DNA of 64,000 nucleotides from a bacterium (lineage in GTDB: Bacteria > Patescibacteriota > Minisyncoccia > Phycocordibacterales > UBA2100), in the NCBI GenBank assembly GCA_030674455.1, contig JAUSGQ010000002.1, positions 6,207 to 70,206 on the forward strand, in the 5' to 3' direction. Below the pieces are notes generated by a model. The model did no database searches. It was not told where the DNA came from and saw nothing but the letters and a program-made list of their open reading frames with translations. Below, in pieces: positions 13,797 to 62,012 of this stretch. The position numbers and the translations under genes were made by a program. Within the stretch, counting starts at the first letter, position 1, and each line of letters starts with the position of its first letter.

Positions 13797-15176
13797 ATGT
13801 TGAATTGTCAAAAACTGTTTGAAGGCAAAAAAATAACCGTGTTAGGGCTAGGACTCCTCGGGAGGGGACTCGGCGACGCGGAGTTCCTCGCGAAGTGCGG
13901 CGCGCATGTTCTCGTTACAGATAAGAAGACAGAAGCACAGCTCGCGGAATCGGTGGAGAAATTAAAACACTACAACAACGTTTCGTTCCGGCTCGGCGGG
14001 CACGATGAAAAAGATTTTGCGGGCCGCGACCTTGTGATTAAGGGCGCAAAAACTCCGCTCGACTCTCCGTACATAGCGGCGGCGCGAAAGGCGGGCGTTC
14101 CCGTTGTAATGTCCACCGCGCTCTTTGCGAAATACGCGATGGAGGAGGGCGCGATTATCGTAGGAATAACCGGCACGCGCGGAAAATCGACTGTGACGCA
14201 CATGATTCACTATGTGCTTATTTCCGCCTTCGCTAAAGCTTCGGCGGACAGGCGCGCTCCGAATGTGATTCTTGGGGGGAACATAAGAGGAATATCAACC
14301 CTTGCTATGCTTCCCGAAATTAAGAAAGGCGACATTGCCGTTCTAGAACTCGATTCGTGGCAACTGCAGGGATTTGGAGATTTACAAATCAGTCCGAACA
14401 TTTCCATCTTTACGAATTTGATGCCTGATCATCTGGACTACTATCAAGGATTGGATGCTTATTTTAACGACAAAGCTAATATTTTTAAGTTCCAAAAGCG
14501 AGGCGATTCACTGTTTGTTGGGAAGGGCATTTTGGAGAAAGTGAAGGCAACGCGGCCGGAGGCCGCGCCGCATGTTCCTCCGGCAATTCCCGCCGACTGG
14601 AAACTGCAAATTCCTGGCGAACATAATCGAGAAAACGCGTCGCTTGCCGCCGCCGCTCTTCGTTCTCTCGGCCTTCAAGAATCGGATATTCAAAGCGGGC
14701 TGGAATCATTTGTTGGTTTGGAAGGCCGGCTTCAACTTGTCGGTCAAATAAAGGGTGTGAACGTTTACAACGATACAAATGCAACCACTCCCGAGGCCAC
14801 GGTCGCCGCCTTGCGAGCCGTGGGAAATGCAAAAAATAGAAAGGTAGTTCTCATAATGGGTGGTGACGATAAATTTCTTGATATGTCCGCGCTCACTGCA
14901 GAAATACCGAAATGGTGCTCCAAAGTTGTTCTCTTTAAAGAACGCGGAACCGACCGAGTTCGTGATGAAGTGTTCGCGATGAAAAGTGAGGGTATGGATG
15001 TTTACGAGGAAGAGGGATTGCCCAATACCGCTGGCCGCGCGTTCTCCATCGCGGTTCCGGGCGAGACCATTTTATTCAGTCCGGCGTTTACCTCATTCGG
15101 CAAATACTTCAAGAACGAATATGACAGGGGGAATCAGTTCATGGCGCTAGTTCGCGCGCACACTGCAAACGGTTAG
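13797..15176 (+). CDS. murD: UDP-N-acetylmuramoyl-L-alanine--D-glutamate ligase
   Basis: N-terminal KKITVLGLG. GITGTRGKSTV P-loop. A DSWQL/MPDHLDYY region. It contains an in-frame family-1 palindrome insertion (ISAFAKASADRR). Confidence 0.85.
   Translation: MLNCQKLFEGKKITVLGLGLLGRGLGDAEFLAKCGAHVLVTDKKTEAQLAESVEKLKHYNNVSFRLGGHDEKDFAGRDLVIKGAKTPLDSPYIAAARKAGVPVVMSTALFAKYAMEEGAIIVGITGTRGKSTVTHMIHYVLISAFAKASADRRAPNVILGGNIRGISTLAMLPEIKKGDIAVLELDSWQLQGFGDLQISPNISIFTNLMPDHLDYYQGLDAYFNDKANIFKFQKRGDSLFVGKGILEKVKATRPEAAPHVPPAIPADWKLQIPGEHNRENASLAAAALRSLGLQESDIQSGLESFVGLEGRLQLVGQIKGVNVYNDTNATTPEATVAALRAVGNAKNRKVVLIMGGDDKFLDMSALTAEIPKWCSKVVLFKERGTDRVRDEVFAMKSEGMDVYEEEGLPNTAGRAFSIAVPGETILFSPAFTSFGKYFKNEYDRGNQFMALVRAHTANG
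14223..14248. repeat. Family-1 palindrome TCCGCCTTCGCTAAAGCTTCGGCGGA inside murD, in frame
   Basis: It is a variant of the 12382 copy. It adds about 10 aa right after the P-loop, compared with E. coli MurD. Confidence 0.7.
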
Positions 15177-15212
15177 TCTGACTAACCTGTCCGTTAGTCA
15201 GACTAACCCATC
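15171..15212. terminator. 17-bp perfect inverted repeat GGTTAGTCTGACTAACC-tgtc-GGTTAGTCAGACTAACC, a likely bidirectional terminator between convergent genes
   Basis: Each arm overlaps the stop codon of one of the convergent genes (murD TAG at 15174-15176; the minus gene at 15198). Confidence 0.5.
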
Positions 15213-15529: not shown

Positions 15530-16876
15530 ATGACAGTTTCGAATATTTACATGGTTGGCATAGGAGGTATAGGTATGTCGGCCCTTGCACAGCTTCTTGT
15601 GCATCAGGGCAAACAAGTGAGTGGGTCGGACAGAGAAGAGTCGCCCACGACAAGATTGCTTGCCGAAAAAGGAGTTTCCGTTTCAATCGGCCTGCTTGCC
15701 GAAGCCTCGGCGCAGGCAGGCCACGATAGGTGTCTCATACCTGCCGATACGGAACTTCTCATATACAGCGATGCCGTTTGGCTCGACAACCAGGAGCGAA
15801 TGCGCGCGAAAGAAATGAAAATCCCCGAAATGTCCTACTTTGAGGCGCTCGGTCAGGTTTCAAAGAAAATGAGAACACTTGCTGTCACGGGGACTCATGG
15901 GAAAACCACAACGACCGGAATGTTGGCGGCGATATTGAAGCACGCGGGGAAAGACCCGAGTGCCATAGTTGGTTCCATTGTGTCGGATTTTAAGTCCAAT
16001 TATCTTGAGGGACGCGATGACCTTCTTGTTGTTGAAGCGTGCGAATACAAAGACCATATGCTGAAACTCTCTCCAGAAATACTGGTGATGACAAATGCCG
16101 AATGGGACCACACCGATTACTTTCCTACGCTCGAGAAGATGCTGGAGTCGTTCAACAAAGCCGCGCGCGCGGTACCAAAGCATGGAGTTGTCGTCACGAA
16201 TCCTGACGGCGAGAATATGAGTGTTGTATTGAAAGGCGTTACAGCGCGCGTGGTTGATTATACGAAAGAATCAACCCCCATGCTCAAACTGCTAGGCGAA
16301 TTCAATCGTGAAAATGCGCGCGCCGCGAAAGCCGCGGCGCGCGCCGCATTTCCCGACATTGTTGAAACTGTCGCGGATGAGGCGCTTAAGAATTTCAAGG
16401 GCTCGTGGCGCCGGTTTGAATACAAAGGCGAAACGCCAAATGGAGCGCAAGTTTACGACGACTACGCGCACCACCCGACGGCGATTAAAAAAACTCTGCG
16501 CGCTGTACGAGAGAAGTTCCCCGGCAAAAGAATAGTCGTTGCATTTCACGCGCACCTCTATTCGAGAACAAGGGATTTGATGAAAGGGTTTGGCGAAGCG
16601 CTTGCCAAAGCCGATGAAGTAATTATCGCGCCGATTTACCCCGCGCGAGAGGAGCCGATTCCCGGTATCACAAATCACGCGCTCGCTGAAGCGGTGCGAA
16701 GGAGCCTGCCTGCCCTGCCTACCGGACAGGCAGGCGGCAGGCAGGGAAATGCCCGCGCTCTGGATTCGTTCAATGAAATCCGTGATGCTCTTCTTAAGTG
16801 CGATTCGGACACGCTAATCATCACAATGGGAGCGGGGGATATTTATAAAGTCGCCGAACAGATTATTGAGCAGTAA
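15530..16876 (+). CDS. murC: UDP-N-acetylmuramate--L-alanine ligase
   Basis: IYMVGIGGIGMSALAQLL...VTGTHGKTTTTGMLAAIL. It contains two in-frame family-1 palindrome insertions (LLAEASAQAG at 15689; SLPALPTGQAGGRQG at 16704). Confidence 0.85.
   Translation: MTVSNIYMVGIGGIGMSALAQLLVHQGKQVSGSDREESPTTRLLAEKGVSVSIGLLAEASAQAGHDRCLIPADTELLIYSDAVWLDNQERMRAKEMKIPEMSYFEALGQVSKKMRTLAVTGTHGKTTTTGMLAAILKHAGKDPSAIVGSIVSDFKSNYLEGRDDLLVVEACEYKDHMLKLSPEILVMTNAEWDHTDYFPTLEKMLESFNKAARAVPKHGVVVTNPDGENMSVVLKGVTARVVDYTKESTPMLKLLGEFNRENARAAKAAARAAFPDIVETVADEALKNFKGSWRRFEYKGETPNGAQVYDDYAHHPTAIKKTLRAVREKFPGKRIVVAFHAHLYSRTRDLMKGFGEALAKADEVIIAPIYPAREEPIPGITNHALAEAVRRSLPALPTGQAGGRQGNARALDSFNEIRDALLKCDSDTLIITMGAGDIYKVAEQIIEQ
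15689..15722. repeat. Family-1 palindrome GGCCTGCTTGCCGAAGCCTCGGCGCAGGCAGGCC inside murC, in frame
   Basis: It has the CCTGC(C/T)TGC / GCAGGCAGG arms with a CGAAGCC core. Confidence 0.8.
16704..16747. repeat. Family-1 palindrome GCCTGCCTGCCCTGCCTACCGGACAGGCAGGCGGCAGGCAGGG inside murC, in frame
   Basis: It has the same arm motifs and a nested arrangement. Confidence 0.75.
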
Positions 16877-16912
16877 GAACATTCCAACATTCTGCAGAAT
16901 GTTGGAATGTTC
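16877..16912. repeat. Family-2 perfect 36-bp palindrome GAACATTCCAACATTC-TGCA-GAATGTTGGAATGTTC
   Basis: It sits immediately after the murC stop. A second copy lies at 18098..18133, so the aminotransferase gene is bracketed. Confidence 0.85.
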
Positions 16913-16995
16913 TTAGGTGGGCCACACATAAATCTCCCTTTCAGGGCATATAGACCCCTTTTACATTTTTCCAATCAGTAAGTATTATAGCTCTA

Positions 16996-18097: not shown

Positions 18098-18133
18098 AAA
18101 CATTCCAACATTCTTGAGAATGTTGGAATGTTT
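18098..18133. repeat. Family-2 perfect palindrome AAACATTCCAACATTC-TTGA-GAATGTTGGAATGTTT
   Basis: See 16877..16912. Confidence 0.85.
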
Positions 18134-18182: not shown

Positions 18183-18435
18183 GGCACTTCCTTCGGGGTT
18201 TGGGTGATGTTCGTAAAGTACGGGCAAAGTCCCAATCGGCGGTAAAGCCCGTCCTCCTGCGCTAAAGCTATGGAGGACAAGCGAGTCCGCGAGCTCTGGT
18301 ATTTATCAGAGCACGACTGCGGTTTGATTCCGCGACCGACCGTATAGTCGGGATGAAAGAAGGAAACCGTACCGCATCACTGATGCATAATGGTACTGTT
18401 TCTATCCCCGAAGAAATGAGGGGATTTTCTATTTT
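18183..18435 (+). promoter_or_regulatory. FMN riboswitch (RFN element) with a terminator expression platform
   Basis: CTTCGGGGTTTGGGTGA...TCCCAATCGGCGGTAAAGCCCG...GATTCCGCGACCGACCGTATAGTCGGGATGAAAGAAGG matches the RFN consensus (UUCGGGGCAGGGUGAAAUUCCC.ACCGGCGGUA..AGCCCG...CCGACAGUGAAAGUCUGGAUGGGAGAAGG). The terminator TCCCC-gaagaaatga-GGGGA plus a T-tract lies at 18405..18435, just before the ribE ATG. Confidence 0.8.
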
Positions 18436-19047
18436 ATGTTCACAGGAATCATCACAGAAATCGGAACCGTTAAAAAGCGCACGGCGAGCGGTTTAGAAGT
18501 TGCCGCAAGCCCCAGCATCGTGCGCCGTCTCGGTCTGGGAGAAAGCGTGGCCGTAAACGGCGCGTGCCTCACTGTTACCTCGGCTCGCGCCGGAACGATT
18601 AAAGCGGATGTCATGGAAGAAACTTGGCGGAAAACGATGCTTGGAAAATTGATATCTGGGAAAAAAGTAAATTTGGAGCTTCCTCTAAAGGCCGACTCTC
18701 TTATCTCGGGCCATTTCGTTCACGGCCATGTGGACGGTGTAGGAAAAGTAAGTAAAGTTGTGAAAACAGGCGCAAGCTATCTTCTTACGCTGGAAGTGCC
18801 GAGAGAAATCTCCCGCCACCTTGTAGATAAGGGTTCTATTGCGGTAAACGGCATCTCGCTCACTATCATCAGGGCGAGCAAAAATAAATTCAGCGTCGGG
18901 ATTATTCCTCACACATGGAGAAATACGACACTGCATGAAGTCAAAGCAGGCGATACGGTGAATATTGAAATTGACATACTAGCGAAATACGCAAGTAAAT
19001 CTCTAACCGCACATTTGCCCGCGTCACTTGCTTATTCGCGCGAATAA
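18436..19047 (+). CDS. ribE: Riboflavin synthase alpha subunit
   Basis: MFTGIITEIG...GESVAVNGACLTV, with the duplicated lumazine-binding halves. The stop lies inside the family-4 palindrome. Confidence 0.9.
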   Translation: MFTGIITEIGTVKKRTASGLEVAASPSIVRRLGLGESVAVNGACLTVTSARAGTIKADVMEETWRKTMLGKLISGKKVNLELPLKADSLISGHFVHGHVDGVGKVSKVVKTGASYLLTLEVPREISRHLVDKGSIAVNGISLTIIRASKNKFSVGIIPHTWRNTTLHEVKAGDTVNIEIDILAKYASKSLTAHLPASLAYSRE

Positions 19048-19052
19048 GCAAG
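19027..19052. repeat. Family-4 palindrome CTTGCTTATTCGCGCGAATAAGCAAG (copy 2), encoding the ribE C-terminus ...LAYSRE*
   Basis: Identical to 1311..1334. Confidence 0.8.
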
Positions 19053-19070
19053 TAGTTAAGATTAATTTAT

Positions 19071-22427: not shown

Positions 22428-22500
22428 GCCACCTTAGCTCAGTTGGTAGAGCACGTCTTTCGTAAAGACGATGTCCGCGGTTCGATTCCGCGAGGTGGCT
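22428..22500 (+). tRNA. tRNA-Thr (anticodon CGT)
   Basis: GCCACCTTAGCTCAGTTGGTAGAGCACGTCTTTCGTAAAGACGATGTCCGCGGTTCGATTCCGCGAGGTGGCT. Anticodon stem CGTCT/AGACG, loop TTCGTAA. T-loop GGTTCGATTCC. Confidence 0.9.
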
Positions 22501-32400: not shown

Positions 32401-33504
32401 ATGCAACGCGCTTTTGGTTTGGCAATAACGTTAACGCTTGTCGCGGCTTTTTTGTTCGTGCTCGCAGAGAGGTATGTGTTGCATATACAGTCGGTGACGA
32501 ACTATGCATGGCCGGCGAGGGTAAAAACCGCGTCAATTGTTTTTGGCGGCGACATGATGTTCGATAGGTCAATTCGAACGGCAATCGAAAAACGTACACA
32601 AAAACAAGGTGGCCTGCCTGCCGAAGCCTTGGCGCAGGCAGGAGATTTTATTTTCTCCTGCATTGACCCAGTTCTTGCAGACGCTGATTTAGTCGTGGCT
32701 AATCTTGAGGGTCCGATAACGGAACATGCCTCCATCAGCGCGTCATCAGTCCCCGGAGACGCGTCTAACTTCACGTTTACGTTTCCGACTTCAACATCTG
32801 CGCTTCTCAACTCTCACAATATTCGCATGGTGAACCTGGGGAATAACCATATCCTGAATTTTGGAAGGGTGGGCGCAAAGGTCACCGCGCAATTCCTCAA
32901 AGATGCCGACATTGGATATTTTGGCCAGCCAACGGTCATTTCATCCAAAGCTCTGGCGCAGGTTGGAGCGGCGGCCTGTCCTTTTGAAGCATCATGCGAA
33001 GGGTGGGCAAAGGGAGGCGGTGAGTTGATGCGCACAGTTTCCACAAAAATAATACATGGAATTCCTCTAGCTTTTATAAACTACAATGAGTTTGCTCCCG
33101 CAGAACATTCCAACATTCTTGAGAATGTTGGAATGTCGTCGACTACGATATTTCAGATACAAAATGCGCGCGCCAGCGGATACATTCCGATAGTCTATAC
33201 GCACTGGGGAGTGGAATACGCGACCACATCATCGGCATATTCGCGCGAATTAGCCCATAGATTTATCGAGGCAGGCGCGGAAATTGTTATCGGTTCGCAT
33301 CCGCATGTTGTTCAAGAACACGAAGTTTATAACGGCAAGCGCATTTATTATTCGCTCGGCAATTTCATCTTTGATCAGTATTTCAGCGATGATGTTACGC
33401 ATGGGCTTCTCCTCAAAGTCGCTTTTAATCAAAGCGGCGTGCAGTTGGTCAAAGAAATCCCGATAGAGCTAGAGCGCGATCGAAGGACGTGTCTTGCATT
33501 GTAG
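32401..33504 (+). CDS. CapA/PGA_cap family metallophosphoesterase (poly-gamma-glutamate capsule synthesis-like)
   Basis: An N-terminal TM helix. FGGDMMFDR...VANLEGP...NLGNNHILNFG...HWGVEY...GSHPHVVQ motifs. It contains two in-frame palindrome insertions (family 1 at 32611, family 2 at 33103). Confidence 0.75.
   Translation: MQRAFGLAITLTLVAAFLFVLAERYVLHIQSVTNYAWPARVKTASIVFGGDMMFDRSIRTAIEKRTQKQGGLPAEALAQAGDFIFSCIDPVLADADLVVANLEGPITEHASISASSVPGDASNFTFTFPTSTSALLNSHNIRMVNLGNNHILNFGRVGAKVTAQFLKDADIGYFGQPTVISSKALAQVGAAACPFEASCEGWAKGGGELMRTVSTKIIHGIPLAFINYNEFAPAEHSNILENVGMSSTTIFQIQNARASGYIPIVYTHWGVEYATTSSAYSRELAHRFIEAGAEIVIGSHPHVVQEHEVYNGKRIYYSLGNFIFDQYFSDDVTHGLLLKVAFNQSGVQLVKEIPIELERDRRTCLAL
32611..32642. 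repeat. Family-1 palindrome GGCCTGCCTGCCGAAGCCTTGGCGCAGGCAGG inside the capA-like gene, in frame (LPAEALAQAG)
   Basis: Canonical arms plus the CGAAGCCTTGGCG core. Confidence 0.8.
33103..33138. repeat. Family-2 palindrome GAACATTCCAACATTC-TTGA-GAATGTTGGAATGTCG inside the capA-like gene, in frame (EHSNILENVGMS)
   Basis: It is nearly identical to the intergenic copies at 16877 and 18098. Confidence 0.85.
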
Positions 33505-34885: not shown

Positions 34886-34956
34886 TGCCAGATCGTCTAA
34901 TGGTAGGACCGCGCCCTCTGGAGGCGTGTATCTTGGTTCGAGTCCAAGTCTGGCAG
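34886..34956 (+). tRNA. tRNA-Gln (anticodon CTG)
   Basis: TGCCAGATCGTCTAATGGTAGGACCGCGCCCTCTGGAGGCGTGTATCTTGGTTCGAGTCCAAGTCTGGCAG. Anticodon loop CTCTGGA. T-loop GGTTCGAGTCC. Confidence 0.8.
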
Positions 34957-43007: not shown

Positions 43008-43110
43008 CAAAGTAGCATTGCCGAATATCGGCACGGCCCCAATATCCGCAAGGTGAGGGGCTTTGTTTTTAATAGCTGACGTTACTGAAAGGTCTGACCT
43101 TCACAGAAAA

Positions 43111-43996: not shown

Positions 43997-44021
43997 GATT
44001 TACAATCTTGCACAAAACGCC

Positions 44022-44052
44022 GCGTCTGACGCGGCGTTTTGTGTTTTTGGGT
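44022..44052 (+). terminator. Rho-independent terminator after csp
   Basis: AAAACGCCGCGTC-tga-CGCGGCGTTTTGTGTTTTT. Confidence 0.8.
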
Positions 44053-47135: not shown

Positions 47136-47167
47136 CCGTTTGAAGAATCGGAAATTGCTCCCACTTT

Positions 47168-47200
47168 CTTATTCCAGTGTTTGCAAAACACTGGAATAAG
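47168..47200. repeat. 15-bp-stem palindrome CTTATTCCAGTGTTT-gca-AAACACTGGAATAAG
   Basis: Perfect hairpin in the proB-gap intergenic region. Confidence 0.7.
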
Positions 47201-47274
47201 AAAGTATGCGGGGTGTGGATATCGTCTAAGCACCTCTCGTGCCAGGGCTTAAAAAATGTAGTACACTGGCGCAA

Positions 47275-51952: not shown

Positions 51953-52080
51953 CAAAACGATATCATCATCTGATGTCCGGCCGGACATTAGATGATGATA
52001 TGCCGGAAAACTTGACAGGGGGGGGTTCTCAATATGATAGCTGTCGGCTGTTCCGATTAATCTTCCAGAAAGGAGGGACT

Positions 52081-61228: not shown

Positions 61229-62012
61229 TTGTACACAAGTCTGACTTGTCGACAAGTCAGACTTGTGTACACTTGTTGTTATATGCGTGTTGAACCATTT
61301 GGCGTGGACTCAATTGTACATGTGGTAAAAAGGGGCGCACGCGGTCTACCAATAACGCGTGATGATGCGGACCGCGGGCGATTTATGAGATTACTCTATT
61401 ATTTGAATGATGAGCATCAAAGCGAATTCTGGGAATTGGACGTTGCGCATCTGCGCGAATTTGAGTGGCCCAAAAGCTGGCCCGAGCGCAAGCCGCTTGT
61501 GCATGTACTCGCATGGACACTGATGCCGAATCATTTTCACCTGCTTTTACAGGAGATACAGGAAGGTGGTGTTTCGCGATTTATGCAACGTCTTTGTGGA
61601 AGCATGTCTCGGCACTTCAATGAGAAATACCAGGAGCACGGAAGTATTTTCCAAGGCGCATACAGAAGTCGCACGATAACCACGGACAGATATTTGCGTT
61701 GGGTTGTTGCATATATTCTTGTGAAAAATGTTTTTGAATTATACCCGGGCGGTTTTAGCAAAGCGTTGAAGGAATTTGAGAAGGCTTGGGAATGGGGAGT
61801 TGGCACCTACAAGTACTCAAGCTTATCCGATTACGCGATTGGCAAGACGACTCCTATTCTTAAGAAAGATCTTACCGAAATGTTCAAAGGACCAGCAGAT
61901 TTCAAGATGTGTGCGCGCGACATGGTCACAAGCCGTTTGGAGGAACTTGCAGGAGTAAATGAAGGAATAGTATTCGAATGATGTCAACACAAGTCAGACT
62001 TGTGTATTTGGC
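61229..62012 (+). mobile_element. RAYT (REP-associated tyrosine transposase) gene bracketed by cognate hairpin repeats
   Basis: The 5' end is a 40-bp perfect palindrome GTACACAAGTCTGACTTGTC|GACAAGTCAGACTTGTGTAC (61231..61270; two head-to-head hairpins). The 3' hairpin ACACAAGT-CAG-ACTTGTGT at 61989..62007 is identical to the right half of the 5' repeat. Confidence 0.7.
61283..61981 (+). CDS. IS200-like Y1 HUH transposase of the REP-associated (RAYT) type
   Basis: HUH motif [15 protein letters not shown]. The downstream [10 protein letters not shown]...[12 protein letters not shown] parallels the RAYT W/FQ..Y....I...YI.NNP catalytic-Tyr region. 232 aa. Confidence 0.7.

Follow-up and report, generated by a model that had tools for sequence, protein, structure and literature searches.

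A Y1 HUH transposase gene bracketed by dyad-symmetric mini-hairpins in Patescibacteria, probably a RAYT-like unit

The Y1 gene and its flanking hairpins

We analyzed a stretch of 64,000 nucleotides from a patescibacterial contig (JAUSGQ010000002.1, positions 6,207 to 70,206; hereafter the window, with positions counted from its first letter). Near its end lies a gene for a Y1 HUH protein of the superfamily that includes IS200 and the RAYTs (tyrosine transposases that go with REPs, repetitive extragenic palindromes), and this gene is bracketed by matching short hairpins. The features of the locus are:

61230..61271, unstranded: upstream head-to-head doublet of hairpins, a 42-bp perfect palindrome (arms 61230-61250 and 61251-61271)
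61283..61981, plus strand: Y1 HUH gene (IS200/RAYT superfamily), 232 amino acids
61529..61540, plus strand: HUH metal-binding motif NHFH (N83 H84 F85 H86), invariant in 29 aligned homologues
61712..61714, plus strand: Tyr144, presumed catalytic, within Y-I-L-V-K-N-V; Y144, V147, K148, and N149 are invariant in the same 29 homologues
61987..62005, unstranded: downstream single hairpin ACACAAGTCAGACTTGTGT, i.e., ACACAAGTC-A-GACTTGTGT, beginning 6 nt past the stop of the open reading frame (ORF)

The upstream doublet consists of ACAAGTC-T-GACTTGT (centre 61242) and ACAAGTC-A-GACTTGT (centre 61259). It begins 4 nt past the stop codon of a gene for an SLT-like peptidoglycan hydrolase and ends 11 nt ahead of the ATG. 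An earlier note on this DNA had described it as a perfect palindrome of two head-to-head hairpins, which is correct, but had given its length as 40 bp instead of 42 bp. The single matching hairpin that the note placed downstream of the gene is there as well, at a position that is typical of the family described below. As a single strand, 61230-61271 folds as one long hairpin with a 19-bp stem (−20.5 kcal/mol, z = −7.75). The fold of the downstream copy has an 8-bp stem and a 3-nt loop (−6.7 kcal/mol, z = −2.3). Within the window, the 19-mer has 6 matches with up to 3 mismatches (3 sites, counted on both strands), where 0.01 would be expected, every one of them beside the gene. The window has 7 palindromes centred on GTC[AT]GAC with stems of 6 bp or more, as compared to 0.12 in shuffled sequences. 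Both flank sites also fit a loose terminator pattern (a stem and a T-rich tail), weakly so at the upstream doublet. Scanning the window's hairpins against Rfam gave no match.

The protein is a Y1 HUH enzyme. As the earlier note had claimed, the ORF carries an HUH motif and a helix-borne tyrosine (Tyr144 is placed on a predicted helix at residues 135-152). The protein passes the threshold of the Pfam family Y1_Tnp (PF01797; 38.9 bits versus a gathering score of 23, E = 1.1e-9, residues 73-145). Conservation of the N-terminus, MRVEP, in most of the 29 homologues in our alignment (55-81% identity) supports the ATG start. Also invariant in this alignment are Q102, F123-Q124, and several residues of the tail (W169, W171, and S179), and the consensus around the tyrosine is Y-[VI]-[ML]-V-K-N-[VP], or Y-x4-N-[VP]. 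The invariance of the HUH and tyrosine residues argues for retained nuclease chemistry; by analogy, Tyr144 would be the catalytic residue. A search of the PDB with the family profile gave marginal matches only (ISDra2 TnpA, E = 0.04), so a fold search was needed. The fold is HUH/RRM-like, and the closest solved fold is that of the REP-associated transposase of E. coli (TnpA-REP), with IS608 TnpA less close. The NCBIfam model transpos_IS200 scored 17 bits versus a cut-off of 55. Neither a Bac_DnaA_C domain nor a helix-turn-helix domain was detected in the protein at E ≤ 0.01.

A collection of 5.8 billion proteins yielded 966 homologues, nearly all of them about 230 amino acids long. The few that have an organism name carry the label Kaiserbacteria, "Patescibacteria group," or plain "bacterium," and the database record of the window protein itself reads "MAG: transposase [bacterium]" (MAG: metagenome-assembled genome). 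Many homologues sit on very short contigs. The contig index gave no exact match to the window protein, 2.9 million viral contigs yielded no relative, and the 64-kb window contains no Y1 gene besides this one.

The gene and its hairpins in related genomes

For relatives, we scanned one genome per GTDB species, which gave 256 that were confirmed and 80 loci that were kept (L001 and so on). The bracketing of the gene by its own hairpins, as described in the earlier note, is real and recurs across the family: in the flanks of the 80 loci, almost every family copy has an upstream and a downstream hairpin. If a perfect stem of at least 7 bp is required, 66 of 81 loci have a hairpin within 150 nt upstream, and 49 of 81 have one within 100 nt downstream, over a background of 0.59 per kb. 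The median distance from the hairpin's centre is 32 nt to the ATG upstream and 15 nt from the stop downstream. Between the upstream hairpin and the ATG, most of the homologous loci have a −10-like TATAAT box.

The hairpins share an apex. Their commonest centres are GTCAGAC (54), GTCTGAC (52), GTCCGAC (10), GTTAAAC (9), and ATCAGAT (9), and the centre-aligned logo of 61 upstream and 50 downstream hairpins is T..G.AAGTCnGACTT.C..A. The apex is conserved, the outer stem is lineage-specific, and, outside the apex, the logo conserves only a paired T/A at ±10. Stem lengths across the family range from 6 to 22 bp. The central base, A or T, has no bias with the direction of the gene, so the orientation of the hairpin carries no visible signal. 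Among 124 distinct hairpins, 91% of the cells are paired (63% in shuffles), with 414 double-sided changes (114 in shuffles). Even the outer five pairs, which were not forced by our selection of hairpins, are 68-93% paired and include all four Watson-Crick types. This covariation is the mark of strong selection for dyad symmetry.

Eleven assemblies contain two or three copies of the gene. The 13 intragenomic pairs are 43-57% identical (median 50%), and each copy has its own stem. For example, the three stems of assembly VGJQ01 are CAAAAGTC (L012), CACAAGTC (L031), and TGAAGTC (L032). Protein identity and stem identity correlate only weakly (Spearman 0.08); it is just where stems are identical that the proteins are closer (56% versus 48%). 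In a published classification, class 2 TnpA-REP-like genes have intragenomic identities of 36-55%, versus ~99% for IS200 (Table 1, PMC6006769). Judging from the sequences, the divergence of the paralogues matches the class 2 pattern and not that of IS200.

The gene cassette is present or absent among close relatives. In the window, the gene order is rplY (L25), the SLT-like peptidoglycan hydrolase (59796/59943-61226), the Y1 gene, rpmE (L31, 62050-62325), and prfA. Three Kaiserbacteria (L001, L002, and L018), whose neighbouring proteins are 51-78% identical to those of the window, carry a Y1 gene at this position too, between the SLT-like gene and rpmE; it belongs to the window gene's lineage (64-75% identity) and shares the ACAAGTCWGACTTGT hairpin. 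L048 has closer neighbours (81-84%), yet the same gap holds a Y1 copy that is only 50% identical and has a GGAGGTTAAACCTCC hairpin. In L025, a Y1 copy occupies the gap before this one, which separates rplY from the SLT-like gene. Finally, there is no Y1 gene between the SLT-like gene and rpmE in L201, L203, or L204, whose SLT-like proteins are 86, 81, and 78% identical to the window's; in L201 and L203 this gap also holds a small ORF resembling one downstream of the L048 cassette. The earlier note had reasoned that hairpins unique in the genome and a conserved context would point to a domesticated copy. Instead, the closest relatives lack the cassette, and L048 carries a different lineage. Between the window and L001, the Y1 gene is 75% identical and the neighbouring prfA is 76% identical, which fits vertical descent for that pair. 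As to the site's history, either an ancestral cassette was lost and replaced, or there were repeated insertions, and the data fit both.

Several other elements were seen at these loci. In L048 (9100-9307), the upstream hairpin and the −10-like box are tandemly duplicated (TAGTTAAAGGAGGTTAAACCTCCAC..CAAAGGTGGTACAAT, two copies). In the three relatives with no cassette, a long hairpin with 20-bp arms follows directly after the SLT-like gene (L201:4793-4890, L203:4786-4855, L204:4786-4848), and its left arm is still recognisable upstream of the L048 cassette. Three Kaiser-/Adlerbacteria loci have a gene of a second and distant Y1 family (~30% identical) on the minus strand, 8-9.5 kb upstream of the main one (L001:1606-2205, L002:510-1154, and L025:1706-2218); the window does not have it. 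These distant copies carry flanking hairpins of their own, of another type (e.g., AAAGTCAGACATCGGATGTCTGACTTT in L025 and ATATCGGGATTTACGAAATCCCGATAT in L002).

Solo hairpins and insertions in frame

Hairpins of this class also occur away from the Y1 gene, as solo copies and doublets in relatives. The sites discussed in this section are:

15171..15208 in the window, unstranded: doublet of the same class with another stem, GGTTAGTCTGACTAACC (GGTTAGTC-T-GACTAACC / GTTAGTC-A-GACTAAC)
43085..43106 in the window, unstranded: intergenic solo hairpin, of the same class but degenerate (CTGAAAGGTC-T-GACCTTCACAG), resembling the L065-type CTGTGAAGGTCTGACCTTCACAG
L191:7437-7494, L194:3756-3816, L185:3340, L093:8777, L193:5808, L178:1160: in-frame hairpins in housekeeping-type ORFs
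L117:10064, L173:4386, L192:8715, L128:969, L138:572, L159:184, L096:1857, L187:3501: recurrent nested context of solo hairpins

In the 1.14 Mb of flanks around the 80 loci there are 20 solo cognate copies. In one genome, the hairpin of one paralogue was found on the contig of another (L012/L031). We also scanned JGI metagenome contigs for CACAAGTCAGACTTGTG, which gave at least 145 matches on at least 120 stretches. The matches listed include at least 57 that are solo (at least 900 nt on both sides with no Y1 gene), at least 28 that adjoin a Y1 gene, and at least 60 that were assigned to neither group. Among the matches listed, 36 of the 57 solo copies have a stem that runs past the searched 8 bp (chance expectation, 25%), and many solos are head-to-head doublets with their centres spaced 19-26 nt apart (L081, L099, L102, L133, L171, L191, and L194).

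Some of these hairpins lie inside genes. Of the 57 solos among the matches listed, 36 fall in open frames of at least 120 codons, several of which are long housekeeping genes. An in-frame hairpin translates as HKSDL, TSQTC, TSLTC, or QVRLV. In a homologue of MnmA, the peptide encoded by the doublet coincides with an indel relative to E. coli MnmA, and in a cysteine desulfurase the hairpin corresponds to a 17-residue insertion relative to a solved homologue. (Further host ORFs resemble ArgRS, another tRNA synthetase, and an AMP-dependent synthetase; these are motif calls by eye, unconfirmed by search.) Y1 genes, too, contain this hairpin in frame: at L092:6347 and L107:641 it sits in the loop that follows helix A, and at L167:340 it is in the C-terminal domain. 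At L134:2537, it lies just past the HUH motif of a distant Y1 gene of the YIHLNP type, which is itself flanked by the same CACAAGTCAGACTTGTG hairpin. Frame-keeping REP insertions inside tnpA-REP genes have been described for TnpA-Y1 subclass 2.4.

Within the window, the doublet at 15171-15208 lies between the convergent murD and an ORF of 91 amino acids, and the stop codons of both genes are inside the hairpins. It folds with a 16-bp stem (−15.4 kcal/mol, z = −7.5). In the relative L205, murD, the same small ORF, and murC are syntenic, but the doublet is missing, and the end of the small ORF diverges between the window and L205 exactly where the window's hairpin starts. (The C-termini of MurD, when compared, gave no clear sign that the doublet truncates the protein; comparing the DNA with that of L205 was more informative.) Given the solo copies and the insertions within genes, the hairpins are, or were, mobile.

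One further candidate, the palindrome at 44011-44043, was set aside. Its GC-rich 16-bp stem and T-run give it the look of an ordinary intrinsic terminator, and the resemblance of its GTCTGAC centre to the hairpin family is probably a coincidence. We also rejected the DnaA box as a feature of the family. Exact DnaA boxes (TTATCCACA) adjoin hairpins at L055:9943 and 10723, L104:2510, L151:1006, and L063:5133 and 9361 (6 within 45 nt of a hairpin versus 0.75 expected, four of them exactly 21 nt from the centre), but they are confined to these four loci.

A recurrent, conserved context for solo hairpins was seen on several contigs: outside of long ORFs, the hairpin is enclosed by an imperfect palindrome of greater length (...AAAGCGCTTCTT-hairpin-AGAAGCGCTTT...). 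Rfam gave no match to this context in L096, L117, L128, or L173, and it may be an unrecognised structured element.

The window contains other palindromes, which are probably the "families 1-4" of the earlier note. Three copies of AACATTCCAACATTCT..AGAATGTTGGAATGTT lie at 16874-16915, 18098-18133, and 33105-33136, and two copies of ACTTGCTTATTCGC/GCGAATAAGCAAGT at 1305-1340 and 19026-19053; other perfect or near-perfect palindromes are at 1593-1624, 2131-2162, 47163-47205, and 51960-52001. None of these window families has the AAGTCNGACTT core, and the window has no second Y1 gene, so the Y1 gene does not explain them. The proposal that a RAYT accounts for the proliferation of palindromes here is unsupported in the window, as is the idea of RAYT paralogues that match the other palindrome families; no cognate solo copy was seen in the 64 kb. 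Rfam's matches in the window were an FMN riboswitch (18185-18368; the palindrome at 18098-18133 is just upstream) and three tRNA genes (2215-2298, 22428-22500, and 34886-34956).

A probable RAYT-like unit and its alternatives

We think it probable that the locus is a unit resembling a REPtron, from a branch of the Y1 HUH (TnpA-Y1) proteins that is specific to Patescibacteria: a gene for a RAYT-like single-stranded DNA endonuclease/ligase, with its cognate hairpins on either side. A fuller version, to which we give about even credence, is that these ~230-amino-acid proteins form an undescribed TnpA-Y1 subclass (NHFH, FQ, Y-x4-N, and a conserved helical tail) which, together with dyad-symmetric AAGTC-W-GACTT mini-hairpins, makes up a low-copy, REPIN-like system in which both the hairpins and the cassette are mobile. 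In this fuller version, singlets and doublets enter intergenic DNA and, in frame, essential genes; the enzyme is physically linked to the hairpins; and close relatives gain, lose, and replace the cassette at the same site.

If IS608 TnpA and E. coli TnpA-REP are taken as guides, the protein would bind the hairpin as it is extruded on single-stranded DNA, with H84 and H86 holding the metal ion. Tyr144 would then cleave at the foot of the hairpin via a covalent 5'-phosphotyrosine intermediate and rejoin the ends, and such reactions could excise and insert segments that are bounded by hairpins: singlets, doublets, and possibly the whole hairpin-gene-hairpin cassette. Indeed, E. coli TnpA-REP, whose structure is available (PMC3479197), binds REP hairpins and cleaves and recombines single strands of REP/BIME DNA in vitro (PMC3333891; BIME: bacterial interspersed mosaic element). 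The conserved apex, AAGTC-N-GACTT, is likely the common recognition element, and the variable stem is likely a lineage-specific one. A second role for the flanking hairpins, in insulating or controlling transcription, is plausible: as the doublet lies just 5' of the ATG, and as the homologous loci have a TATAAT box, the flanking hairpins probably also insulate or regulate the transcription of the gene.

Several points weigh against a RAYT-like reading. Canonical RAYT signatures are missing, and we do not retain the earlier note's description of the locus as a classical RAYT in a BIME. The protein scores 39.6 bits against the NCBIfam model REP_Tyr_transpos (NF047646), under the equivalog cut-off of 80; the motif is Y-x4-N-[VP] and not Y-x3-NP; and the hairpins are symmetric, with no GT[AG]G foot or other asymmetric conservation outside the stem in the 61 upstream and 50 downstream hairpins. 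As the hairpin is a near-perfect dyad with no asymmetric foot, the covariation fits a hairpin on single-stranded DNA and a duplex bound by a dimer equally well; E. coli TnpA-REP is a monomer. As the only cognate hairpins in the 64-kb window are those beside the gene, the repeat appears to be low-copy, and its amplification weak compared to that of classical REPs. In a metagenome collection of the size that we scanned, a 17-mer can match by chance. The low identity of intragenomic copies must be read with the caveat that MAG assemblies collapse identical repeats and could hide IS-like copies of high identity. Finally, what appears to link the protein to the mobility of the hairpins is association and homology.

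The main alternative is that the locus is an autonomous, minimal insertion sequence (IS) like IS200, in which a hairpin-promoter-gene-hairpin unit of ~780 bp moves, the hairpins are its ends, and the solo hairpins are scars or miniature derivatives. This would account for how the cassette fills the gap from the stop of the SLT-like gene to the rpmE promoter region, and for the site that is empty in the closest relatives, is occupied by another lineage in L048, and has its counterpart in the neighbouring gap in L025. The −10-like box suggests an internal promoter, and very short contigs, as seen for many homologues, are expected for repeated elements. Nevertheless, we consider an autonomous IS to be rather unlikely. 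No two copies in a genome were over 57% identical, as compared to ~99% for the IS200 type (PMC6006769), and the match to transpos_IS200 is far below its cut-off. The tyrosine motif is not Y-x3-Q, the protein is ~80 amino acids longer than IS200 TnpA, and its fold is nearer to TnpA-REP than to IS608 TnpA. Solo hairpins and doublets outnumber gene-adjacent hairpins among the metagenome matches listed, no relative turned up among the viral contigs, and the similar identities of the Y1 gene and prfA between the window and L001 fit vertical descent at the site.

Another explanation is that the hairpins are ordinary regulatory elements (an upstream terminator, an autoregulatory operator, and the gene's own terminator) and that the Y1 protein is a domesticated factor for DNA binding or processing that moves no DNA. 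Both hairpin sites do fit the loose terminator pattern, the upstream hairpin is directly 5' of the −10-like box in most loci, close to the ATG, and the protein is conserved over its full length across orders, as expected for a gene that benefits its host. But hairpins in frame inside genes speak against a purely regulatory role: identical hairpins within MnmA, the cysteine desulfurase, candidate tRNA synthetases, and Y1 genes cannot be terminators or operators there. Relatives lack some of the insertions (the doublet at 15171-15208 is missing from L205), and the HUH and tyrosine residues are invariant. We therefore consider a purely regulatory explanation to be very unlikely. As for a chance palindrome beside a decayed transposase pseudogene, the low copy number in the window is all that favours it, and its probability is negligible. 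The ORF is intact and full-length with all of the invariant residues, the hairpin matches go far beyond chance, and the arrangement recurs in ~80 loci, all of which already refutes it.

If the locus is a RAYT-like unit, then its closest functional parallel is E. coli TnpA-REP (RAYT, YafM) and the REPtron, where the gene likewise lies between palindromic repeats of its own, inverted doublets among them. Like class 2 genes generally, the patescibacterial family has one lineage-specific repeat per paralogue, paralogues of low identity, and a patchy presence (PMC6006769). Unlike in E. coli, the hairpin is a symmetric dyad with the apex AAGTC-N-GACTT, the protein is ~70 amino acids longer, the hosts are Patescibacteria, and the repeats appear to have a low copy number, with no solo copy in 64 kb and ~20 solo copies in 1.1 Mb of flanks. 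By its motifs, the family is nearest to TnpA-Y1 subclass 2.1 (group 1 of Bertels, or TIRYT; PMC6006769), with which it shares NH[YF]H, FQ in place of WQ/WE, SS in the proximal tail (S179 and S180), and a length near the median of 238 amino acids. However, subclass 2.1 has Y-[IV]-x-L-N-P and no reported REP-like flanks (TIRYTs have terminal inverted repeats; PMC6006769), whereas hairpin flanks are the rule in the patescibacterial family. The symmetric, "double foot" REPs of subclass 2.4, from Cyanobacteria and Bacteroidetes, recall the dyad hairpin, but that subclass differs in having WQ, YIxNNP, and GT[AG]G/C[TC]AC feet and in its taxonomic range. A compact unit of ~0.7-0.8 kb with one Y1 gene between hairpins is also like IS200 (IS200/IS605 family, subclass 1.1). 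IS200 TnpA, though, has ~150 amino acids, Y-x3-Q, multiple near-identical copies, and a dimer with a trans active site, and the window gene has none of these sequence or copy-number features (232 amino acids, Y-x4-N, and one copy in the window). The inverted doublets fold into one long hairpin, as do REPINs (Bertels and Rainey). Compared to the REPINs of Pseudomonas, the copy number appears to be far lower.

A reduced genome with palindromes in frame in its housekeeping genes is reportedly also found in Rickettsia, in the form of the Rickettsia palindromic elements (RPEs). The patescibacterial hairpins are like RPEs in this respect, but their units are ~17-45 nt instead of ~100-150 bp, and, unlike RPEs, they come with a physically linked candidate for the mobilising enzyme.

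RAYT/REP systems have so far been characterised mainly in Proteobacteria, Cyanobacteria, and Bacteroidetes. None of the papers covered by our literature search describes a system of this kind in Patescibacteria, and the phylogenomic classification of 2018 has no class with these motifs and this hairpin (PMC6006769, Quentin et al.). If the RAYT-like reading is correct, then even episymbionts with genomes of ~1 Mb keep one to three RAYT-like genes with co-evolving hairpins, and these hairpins reshape essential coding sequences (MnmA, an IscS-like desulfurase, and candidate tRNA synthetases). For annotation, the peptides HKSDL, TSQTC, TSLTC, and QVRLV mark such insertions. The short, symmetric, apex-conserved hairpin would be a simple substrate for tests of how Y1 proteins recognise and move DNA, and the system would be a model of how reduced genomes take up palindromes in frame.

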